The notes: generated from the letters alone by a model not told the origin. Shown: positions 9,425-12,402, counted from the stretch's first letter. The stretch is 64,000 nucleotides of DNA from Escherichia coli (GCF_003334305.1 NZ_QOWS01000019.1); one strand, 5' to 3'. Made by a program: numbers and translations.

Positions 9425-9702
9425 AAGTAGTTGATATGGCGTTCACTGTTATATTCTGACAACCAGTTTGCCGCCAGTTCCCGCTTTTCATCCAGCGTTC
9501 TGAACAGACAAAAACCGAGTATTTTTGTTCGGTATGTCCGGTTAAAACTCTCGATAAAAGCGTTCTGCGCCAACTTACCTGATTGGGTAATCTCCAGTTT
9601 TACTACATGTTTTTCTGCGCATTACGTCCGTGTTGGATAAAAAAAATCCTGGCCATAATCTATGCGAATCATAGCTGGATAGACATGGTTTTCCGCAATC
9701 CT
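9425..9702 (-). pseudogene. IS3-family transposase OrfB C-terminal remnant (frameshifted)
   Basis: Minus-strand translation gives ...NAFIESFNRTYRTKILGFCLFRTLDEKRELAANWLSEYNSERHINYLTI, the conserved C-terminal region of IS3-family OrfB; directly abuts the IS629 left end. Confidence 0.5.
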
Positions 9703-9756
9703 TGAACCGCCCCGGGAATCCTGGAGACTAAACTCCCTGAGAAAGAGGTAAACAGG

Positions 9757-10083
9757 ATGACTAAAAATACTCGTTTTTCCCCCGAAGTCCGTCAGAGGGC
9801 GATTCGTATGGTTCTGGAAAGTCAGGGCGAATATGACTCACAGTGGGCGGCAATTTGTTCCATTGCCCCAAAGATTGGCTGTACACCGGAGACTCTGCGT
9901 GTCTGGGTACGCCAGCATGAGCGGGATACCGGAGGCGGTGATGGCGGGCTCACCACCGCTGAACGTCAGCGTCTGAAAGAGCTGGAACGTGAAAATCGTG
10001 AACTGCGCCGCAGTAACGATATCCTTCGCCAGGCTTCCGCTTATTTTGCGAAGGCGGAGTTCGACCGCCTCTGGAAAAAATGA
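9757..10083 (+). CDS. IS629 transposase OrfA
   Basis: 108-aa ORF with helix-turn-helix and leucine-zipper region, recognised as IS629 OrfA. Confidence 0.85.
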
Positions 10084-10970
10084 TGCCACTGCTGGATAAG
10101 CTGCGTGAGCAGTACGGGGTCGGACCGCTATGCAGCGAACTGCATATTGCCCCGTCAACGTATTACCACTGTCAGCAACAGCGACATCATCCGGATAAAC
10201 GCAGTGCCCGTGCGCAGCGCGATGACTGGCTGAAGAAAGAGATACAGCGCGTATACGATGAAAATCACAAGGTATACGGTGTGCGTAAAGTCTGGCGTCA
10301 GTTGTTACGGGAAGGTATCAGAGTGGCCAGATGCACTGTGGCACGTCTCATGGCGGTTATGGGACTTGCCGGTGTTCTCCGTGGTAAAAAGGTCCGTACG
10401 ACCATCAGCCGGAAAGCCGTTGTCGCAGGCGACCGCGTAAACCGTCAGTTCGTGGCAGAACGTCCTGACCAGTTGTGGGTGGCTGATTCTACTTACGTCA
10501 GCACATGGCAGGGGGGCGTCTATGTGGCGTTCATCATTGATGTGTTTGCCGGATACATCGTGGGGTGGCGGGTCTCATCGTCTATGGAAACGACATTTGT
10601 GCTGGATGCTCTGGAGCAGGCGTTATGGGCCCGTCGACCGTCCGGCACAGTCCATCACAGTGATAAAGGTTCTCAGTATGTATCGCTGGCCTACACACAG
10701 CGGCTTAAGGAAGCCGGATTACTGGCATCAACAGGAAGTACAGGCGACTCGTATGACAACGCGATGGCGGAGAGCATCAATGGCCTTTACAAAGCGGAGG
10801 TAATACACCGTAAGAGCTGGAAAAACCGTGCAGAAGTGGAACTGGCCACACTCACGTGGGTGGACTGGTATAACAATCGACGATTGCTGGAAAGGCTGGG
10901 CCATACTCCTCCGGCAGAAGCAGAAAAAGCTTATTATGCTTCCATCGGAAACGATGATCTGGCAGCCTGA
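10080..10970 (+). CDS. IS629 transposase OrfB (DDE integrase core)
   Basis: 296-aa ORF overlapping orfA by 4 bp; integrase-core sequence (HSDKGSQY...[13 protein letters not shown]). Confidence 0.85.
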
Positions 10971-11239
10971 GTTCACAGATAAAACACTCTCCAGGAAACC
11001 CGGGGCGGTTCACCTACAGAGTACCGCTACCACTTGTGAAGCTGGCAGATTCAGATTGTTTTCAATCGACAACGCCTCATAGTTAAAGTCATCAACGACA
11101 TTGAACGTGTGAAGTGGTCAACAAAAACTGGCCACCGAGTTAGAGTTTTTCCAGTATCGATTTTCCGATTCGTTTGGGGATAACCCACCGTTATATTCGT
11201 GCGGTCTTAGTGCGCTGTAATATCCAACGATATAGACCG

Positions 11240-11530
11240 TTATGGCGTGAGCGGCCTCGCAGAAGCTTCGTAACCCACCACCGGCATCCATTCGTTCTTC
11301 AGACTCCTGAAGAAGCGTTCCATTGGGCTGTTATCCCAGCAGTTTCCGCGCCGGCTCATACTCTGCCTGATCTGGTATCGCCACAATAACTGCCGGAACT
11401 GCCTGCTCGTATCGCTGTGGAACATCACCCCGCCGGGCTTACCCGTCCAGATATAGGTCACATCACCGCACCACACCTGTATAGCGGCGTAATCCCCAAA
11501 AACGATGCTGGTTGTCAGTAAACAAGCCAT
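11240..11530 (-). pseudogene. IS3-family transposase OrfB fragment with internal deletion
   Basis: 96-aa ORF with ...[18 protein letters not shown]...[25 protein letters not shown]; the segment between the first Asp region and HSD appears deleted. Confidence 0.6.
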
Positions 11531-11574
11531 GAATGACAGTCGTTCCTGAAATCATAAGACCTGGAGGAGTGTAT

Positions 11575-11765
11575 GCTCCGTCGCAGTAATTACCACGATA
11601 CGCTTGCAGAATTTTTTCCAGTTACTGAAGCGTGAACGGATAAAGAAAAAGCTCTTCGGAACGCGGGAAAACGCCTCCAACGATATTTTTGAACATCGAA
11701 ATGTTTTATAACAATAAGCGTCGGCATGGTTCCTGCGAACAGATGTCAACAATAGAATATAAAAA
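11575..11765 (+). pseudogene. IS3-family transposase OrfB C-terminal remnant (frameshifted)
   Basis: Plus-strand translation gives ...QLLKRERIKKKLFGTRENASNDIFEH / IEMFYNNKRRHGSCEQMSTIEYKNNYYQQLG across one frameshift. Confidence 0.4.
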
Positions 11766-12402
11766 CAATTATTATCAACAACTTGGAAGGAGTAAGACTA
11801 CCCGTGGCGATTCAATATTAGATCATTGATGGAGATATAAATGGCTCACTTTTTATCGGTTGTTGACGATACGTTTATCAAGTATACATGAAAATTTCTT
11901 CATACCAGCTATATGAGACGTTAAGACTAATAATCTTACTCCCAAAATGACTATGTTGTTGCAGTTTGGTTTATTGACTCTTGTCTATAGTTCACCGAAT
12001 GCCAAGATGAGGGAGCGAGGAACTTTACTGTCTACGCCTCTCTTCCTGGTTACAAAGACAAGCGTAAAACTCACCATCCATTAGAACTAAAGGCACTTTC
12101 CTGAGCAGAGTTTTCATCTGCAAGATAAAAGCTATTTTACAGCCGTAAAGTCCAGTGAAACGAAAGAGAGGTTAGTGAATTAATTACTTGATGTATTAAA
12201 GTATAATGGGCGTAGATAACACCTTAATACGAAATCTTGTCAGGCTTTCCCGGTAATTAGTAATACTGTTGAAACAAAGCGAGAGGGGGTTAGCCCAATT
12301 TACGCAAATAAATAATAATCTTGATTATGATTAATTCCAAATAAGTATATTTTTCCAGTAGATGCTGGGCATTAACTAAGAAAACCCAGAATACCACTTT
12401 CA

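Follow-up and report, generated by a model that had tools for sequence, protein, structure and literature searches.

A complete IS629-type element with a CCT target-site duplication among layered IS3-family remnants of an Escherichia coli ColV plasmid

The biology of the IS3 family is established from studies of IS911, IS2 and IS3. Members of the family are about 1.2–1.55 kb long, have imperfect TG...CA terminal repeats and duplicate 3–4 bp of their target. Their two overlapping open reading frames lie in phases 0 and −1, and an OrfAB fusion is made with the help of a slippery A-rich run followed by an RNA structure. IS629 produces a duplication of 3–4 bp without a sequence-specific target; IS1203 and IS3411 are isoforms of IS629, whose sub-types are 4–5% apart (PMC3271280; see PMC9943667 for further literature on IS629). 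The presence of IS629 on pAPEC-O1-ColBM is mentioned in passing in one article (PMC2626276).

In the nested IS clusters of large conjugative plasmids, generations of insertion sequences are stacked in non-essential spacer, the younger elements interrupting older, dead ones. The locus described here has the same organization and nothing that distinguishes it from such clusters; here the order of the layers can be read from plasmids which keep earlier states. It is a textbook nested insertion of little importance in itself, and offers a clean worked example of an IS pile-up whose intermediate stages can still be seen in related plasmids.

The DNA analyzed is a 64-kb stretch from E. coli (GCF_003334305.1, NZ_QOWS01000019.1), hereafter the window, numbered from its first letter. 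It carries hlyF, ompT, etsABC, iss, iro and cvaC, and the plasmids that match it are IncFIB ColV/ColBM plasmids. The genes hlyF, ompT and etsABC were named by identity to pECOS88. A product encoded near 45.6–45.9 kb and another at 25.2 kb are taken, from their sequences, to be those of cvaC and iss (Iss). The window has what defines a ColV plasmid, namely a colicin V operon and the hlyF-ompT-ets/iss/iro region on an IncF backbone. The locus is located between ompT and etsA, in the gene order hlyF, ompT, IS bed, etsABC, and its features are listed in Table 1. An 87-aa ORF (9002–9265, minus strand), located in the AT-rich stretch that separates ompT from the IS bed, is kept in pGZM7a with three substitutions.

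Table 1. Coordinates of the IS629-type element, its flanking duplication and the surrounding IS3-family remnants (F1–F3) in the window
Feature	Coordinates	Strand	Remarks
F1, 3' part: IS3-family remnant (C-terminal transposase region and terminal repeat)	9337..9702	-	76% nt identity to the end of L006
Left CCT copy of the duplication	9700..9702	.	Adjoins IS629; single CCT in empty sites
IS629-type element, complete, IS3 family	9703..11012	+	1310 bp, collinear with annotated IS629
IRL	9703..9727	+	Begins TG; 23/25 versus reverse complement of right end
orfA	9757..10083	+	108 aa; open; NF033516 profile positions 1–86
ALIL frameshift-stimulating pseudoknot	10038..10154	+	Rfam RF01497, 120.2 bits (gathering score 50), E=5.6e-32, full model 1–117
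orfB	10080..10970	+	296 aa; −1 frame relative to orfA; DDE domain; NF033516 positions 93–369
IRR	10988..11012	-	Ends ...CA; 23/25 versus left end
Right CCT copy of the duplication	11013..11015	.	Adjoins IS629; single CCT in empty sites
F1, upstream part	11016..11109	-	Truncated at 11109 by the IS911 end; 91% nt identity to L006
F2, IS911 right-end remnant	11110..11477	-	IRR TGAAGTGGTCAACAAAAACTGG starts at 11110; internal deletions
F3, right-end remnant of a third IS3-family element	11478..11814	+	Ends ...CCCGTGGCGATTCA at 11814

The gene order is the same in pECOS88, pAPEC-O1-ColBM and Salmonella ColV-type plasmids, which are identical to the window over 9000–12400 except for one base: the window has G at position 10516 where they have T (V146G in OrfB). 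All the other plasmid copies seen have T at this position, where a run of five G becomes a run of six in the window, and the exact IS sequence of the window was found in no PLSDB record. The G at 10516 may be either a mutation private to the window or an error of sequencing. The pECOS88 sequence differs from that of the window at two of 11,401 bases. One is inside the IS, and the other is at position 5095 (G in the window, T in pECOS88), in a 302-aa minus-strand ORF that corresponds to Mig-14. The comparison with pAPEC-O1-ColBM gives seven mismatches and three gaps over 7,329 bases. The latter plasmid has, at its positions 3021–3039 (about 9725 in the window), a 19-bp tandem duplication (GGAGACTAAACTCCCTGAG) on the inner border of the left repeat of IS629, which is also present in at least three other plasmids.

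The IS629-type element starts with TGAACCGCC at 9703 and ends with GGCGGTTCA at 11012. The length and the TGAACC...GGTTCA ends are those expected in the IS3 family. The initial annotation had described the terminal inverted repeats as matching; they are present but imperfect, with 14 identical positions out of the first 14 and 23 out of 25. The exact 14-mer TGAACCGCCCCGGG, which opens the element and whose reverse complement closes it, occurs at just these two places in the 64-kb window. Another 14-mer resembling the repeat, at 61562–61575, has two mismatches and is within a 1756-aa ORF; it was taken as a chance occurrence. The terminal repeat of remnant F3 (TGAATCGCCACGGG, 11801–11814, minus strand) is only two positions off the terminal 14-mer of IS629, so that the ends of IS629 and F3 are related. 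By eye, the C-termini of the transposases of F3 and of the IS629 element look dissimilar.

As proposed in the initial annotation, which had also called for an alignment to IS629, the element at 9703–11012 is an IS629. It aligns from 1–1310 to 1–1310, with the same ends and without indels, with the copy of phage Stx2_499 that its depositor annotated as "insertion sequence:IS3 family IS629". The two sequences differ by 30 nucleotides (97.7% identity), and the first 32 and last 228 nucleotides are identical. The phage copy has its own 4-bp duplication. Similarly, the IS629 annotated in phage BP-4795 is 98.1% identical to the element of the window, and the chromosomal copies of O157:H7, labeled "IS1203 family" by PGAP, are about 96% identical. 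The identity to depositor-annotated IS629 (97.7–98.1% over 1310/1310) is above the value of about 95% over the full length used to define isoforms, the name being that given by depositors and PGAP and the comparison copies being from Stx phages. The element shares with IS629, IS1203 and IS3411 its length, its ends, the layout of two ORFs with a −1 frameshift, the ALIL pseudoknot and a duplication of 3–4 bp. It differs from the annotated IS629 compared here by S137 and V/G146 in OrfB.

Both reading frames of the element are open, and the description of orfA and orfB as intact in the initial annotation is correct. The ORFs overlap at AAAAAATGATG, and an A6 slippery run is present at 10075–10080. 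The ALIL pseudoknot spans this run and the overlap between the orfA stop and the orfB start; it is the only match obtained when 9000–12400 was scanned against Rfam. This is the two-ORF arrangement of the IS3 family (phases 0 and −1, A-rich run, downstream RNA structure), and frameshifting is predicted. In pECOS88 (S88), PGAP annotates the copy as one transposase CDS of 1214 nt. OrfB scores 310 bits against NF033516 (the NCBIfam equivalog for the IS3 family transposase, cut-off 160) and has a DD(35)E triad, D136 (WVAD), D195 (HSD) and E231 (MAES), 35 residues separating D195 from E231.

This copy thus has the complete set of cis-acting and coding features expected in the IS3 family, although open ORFs do not demonstrate activity. 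OrfA differs from that of the Stx2_499 IS629 by two amino acids, and OrfB by three (V115, S137 and G146). Residue 137, which directly follows the first catalytic aspartate, is Ser instead of the Phe of the annotated IS629. Residue 146 is Gly in the window, Val in the other ColV plasmids and Phe in the annotated IS629. It is possible, if doubtful, that the copy merely looks intact and is a transpositionally dead or crippled variant, stuck at one site. The substitutions at positions 137 and 146 of OrfB are compatible with such a defect. Copies at least 99% identical are present in 412 plasmid records and 457 E. coli records, compared to 534 and 587 for the junction at this locus; the former are not above the latter, so there is no apparent excess of the variant elsewhere. 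This comparison of record counts is indirect. Against such a defect, the two ORFs and the two terminal repeats are intact, as are the A6 run and the ALIL pseudoknot.

The bed of IS3-family remnants in which IS629 is inserted spans 9337–11814. The initial annotation had located it correctly, but its limits (9425 and 11790) were too narrow on both sides. The same annotation counted at least three non-contiguous IS3-family fragments on both strands, and there are indeed remnants of three distinct elements, F1, F2 and F3. The translations of the flanks match NF033516 with E-values of 7.8e-19 (F1), 1.2e-24 (F2) and 4.5e-12 (F3).

The outer terminus of F1, TGTAAACAGACTCG (TGTAAACAGACTCGTTTTAGTTCC), starts at 9337. 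It aligns with the end of an intact element annotated as "IS3 family transposase" (L006), and the flanks diverge outside it. The two blocks of F1 are collinear with L006, with 23 nt between the aligned blocks in both sequences, and tblastn finds F1 as a single piece across the junction: IS629 split the F1 remnant. A left terminal repeat was searched for in L006, and no clear one was seen. The minus-strand codon 9596–9598 of F1 is an in-frame stop in the window (TRT*CAEKH); it encodes Glu in pGZM7a, in which a 138-aa ORF is open.

F2 consists of roughly the last 350 bp of IS911 and a further 43 bp, with a boundary between F2 and F3 that is uncertain by about 3 bp. It is 95–97% identical to sequences annotated by PGAP as "IS3-like element IS911 family transposase". 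Compared to the IS911 of a Shigella flexneri plasmid (L008), the identity is 93.8% over 11107–11443 and 100% over 11437–11479. F2 starts at the right end of IS911, and its match to IS911, at 94–100% identity, takes in the right terminal repeat and a 3' portion of orfB. Of the 1250 bp of IS911, only about 390 bp is left, interrupted by frameshifts and internal deletions, so F2 is a dead remnant rather than an element. In L008, an unrelated plasmid, the complete IS911 abuts a 382-bp right-end fragment of IS629 type (1604–3234 for the whole), which is 99.2% identical to 10631–11012 of the window.

F3 has a relative, L007, which is bounded by TGAATCGCCACGG and CCGTGGCGATTCA; the outside flank of the relative diverges from the window two bases after ...GATTCA. 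The closest intact relatives of F1 (61% amino acid identity) and F3 (80–83% nucleotide identity) are annotated only as "IS3 family transposase".

Plasmids that lack one or more of the layers give their order. In pGZM7a there is no IS911 DNA, F1 is longer by 129 bp and F3 by 677 bp, and the two abut at their truncated ends. In pIncF-MU4, L010 and p1ColV5155, the IS911 remnant is just that of the window, and IS629 is absent. In pIncF-MU4, an IS1 that is 98% identical to IS1A is inserted inside the IS911 remnant (3556–4310 of this plasmid), with a 9-bp duplication, GATTTTCCG, equivalent to 11158–11167 of the window. The initial annotation had proposed that the spot has been hit repeatedly. The comparison of plasmids shows these repeated hits directly, rather than leaving them to be inferred: pGZM7a has no IS911 remnant, 115 plasmids have no IS629, and pIncF-MU4 has its IS1 about 50 bp away.

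The CCT triplets that flank IS629 had been noted in the initial annotation, at the positions given in Table 1, together with the proposal to look for an empty site in other plasmids and the remark that offset boundaries would contradict a duplication. Empty sites were searched for using the joined flanks, without the IS and with one CCT. In PLSDB, the empty junction was found in 115 records and the occupied left junction in 534, that is 649 of the 650 records which match the locus (120-bp probe for the empty junction, records counted at 80% coverage or more). The four plasmids read in detail (pGZM7a, pIncF-MU4, L010 and p1ColV5155) join the equivalents of 9702 and 11016 with one CCT. In these empty plasmids, the BLAST positions matching 9702 and 11013 overlap by exactly three bases, hence the single CCT. 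The distant relatives L005 and L006 are also collinear here, and neither has an indel at the site. Moreover, once the IS is excised with one CCT, the minus strand again has a continuous frame (...VVAVLCRIAENH..., ...ASQVVAVLCRIAENHVYPAM...), which is the corresponding part of the 138-aa ORF of pGZM7a, the in-frame stop and three substitutions being the differences. The ends of the element are thus not offset and uninterrupted sites have a single CCT; the triplet is therefore a true target-site duplication, of the 3–4 bp size typical of the IS3 family.

The relative order of the layers is shown by these plasmids, and the most economical history of the locus is the joining of F1 and F3 by a deletion, followed by IS911 and further deletions, then by IS629. 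F1 (minus strand) and F3 (plus strand) would have lost their left parts and come together broken end to broken end, the right termini facing outward. IS911 would then have inserted at or near the join, and deletions would have removed 129 bp from F1, 677 bp from F3 and the greater part of IS911. The direction from a pGZM7a-like state to that of the window assumes that the deleted DNA was not regained by recombination. IS629 came last, in a probable single transposition that duplicated CCT, into the remnant of a dead IS3-family transposase gene; this remnant is in the dispensable DNA that separates ompT from etsABC on the ColV virulence plasmid. By analogy with what is known of the family, this transposition probably used a copy-out-paste-in route with a circular intermediate, catalyzed by an OrfAB fusion made by −1 frameshifting. 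All the plasmids of the occupied lineage, including that of the window, would then have inherited the insertion. We are highly confident that a single IS629 insertion with a CCT duplication occurred in this layered scar and was later inherited. The pile-up itself may consist of neutral insertions into dead DNA between operons, without function.

The insertion was first described as a simple recent transposition. That it was simple is supported by the empty sites with a single CCT; "recent" needs to be qualified. Although no layer is younger than IS629, the insertion is inherited rather than private to this plasmid. The insertion is present in about 82% of the PLSDB plasmids which have the locus, and the junction is found in 583 of 5,426 complete E. 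coli genomes (about 11%; 587 E. coli records). The sequence of the element is 99.9% identical to the copies of pECOS88, pAPEC-O1-ColBM and many other plasmids. The feature is ordinary, already known and inherited, being common to hundreds of sequenced ColV/ColBM plasmids, and the initial annotation was right in both its observation and its interpretation, except for this loose word.

In the left flank, the empty plasmids have 32–41 mismatches to the window over 3.4–6 kb (0.7–1.1%), compared to 0.02–0.1% for the occupied ones. Since the occupied plasmids are nearly identical to the window and the empty ones divergent, the empty state appears to be ancestral, and the insertion seems to mark a successful sublineage, which includes pAPEC-O1-ColBM, pECOS88 and the Salmonella plasmids. 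The flank divergence in six plasmids and the record counts point to a single gain of IS629. Alternatively, IS629 could be ancestral and the empty sites could result from later precise removal, for example by an activity of the IS-excision-enhancer type, which would also leave clean sites with a single CCT. This is very improbable considering the greater divergence of the empty plasmids and the state of pGZM7a, which is older than the IS911 layer and still has DNA that every occupied plasmid read has lost; the near identity of the IS copies at the site (about 99.9%) also suggests a young insertion. Even if the empty sites arose by excision, the duplication and the simple insertion would stand.

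A non-neutral effect of the insertion, which could explain why about 82% of the plasmids are occupied, is also very improbable. It would involve an immobile variant of the ColV lineage (S137 and V/G146 beside the catalytic Asp of OrfB) whose read-out transcription alters ets expression or local plasmid stability. IS629 is on the same strand as etsABC, 1.39 kb upstream. A coincidental CCT on both sides, with IS629 brought in by homologous recombination between copies or by a larger rearrangement, is conceivable given that a 3-bp match occurs by chance in one case out of 64 and that IS629-type copies are abundant in E. coli (median of four places per genome having any), but it is ruled out by the empty sites, whose flanks are contiguous with exactly one CCT, and by the exact restoration of the interrupted frame.

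The IS629 insertion and its surroundings provide markers: the presence or absence of IS629 and of the IS911 remnant, the IS1 and the 19-bp duplication could help to split the lineages of ColV plasmids. A 99.9% identical copy of the IS is also found at 3988862–3990171 of the E. coli chromosome NZ_CP172208.1 (H282), beside omptin genes. This location suggests that a ColV virulence region has been integrated into the chromosome.
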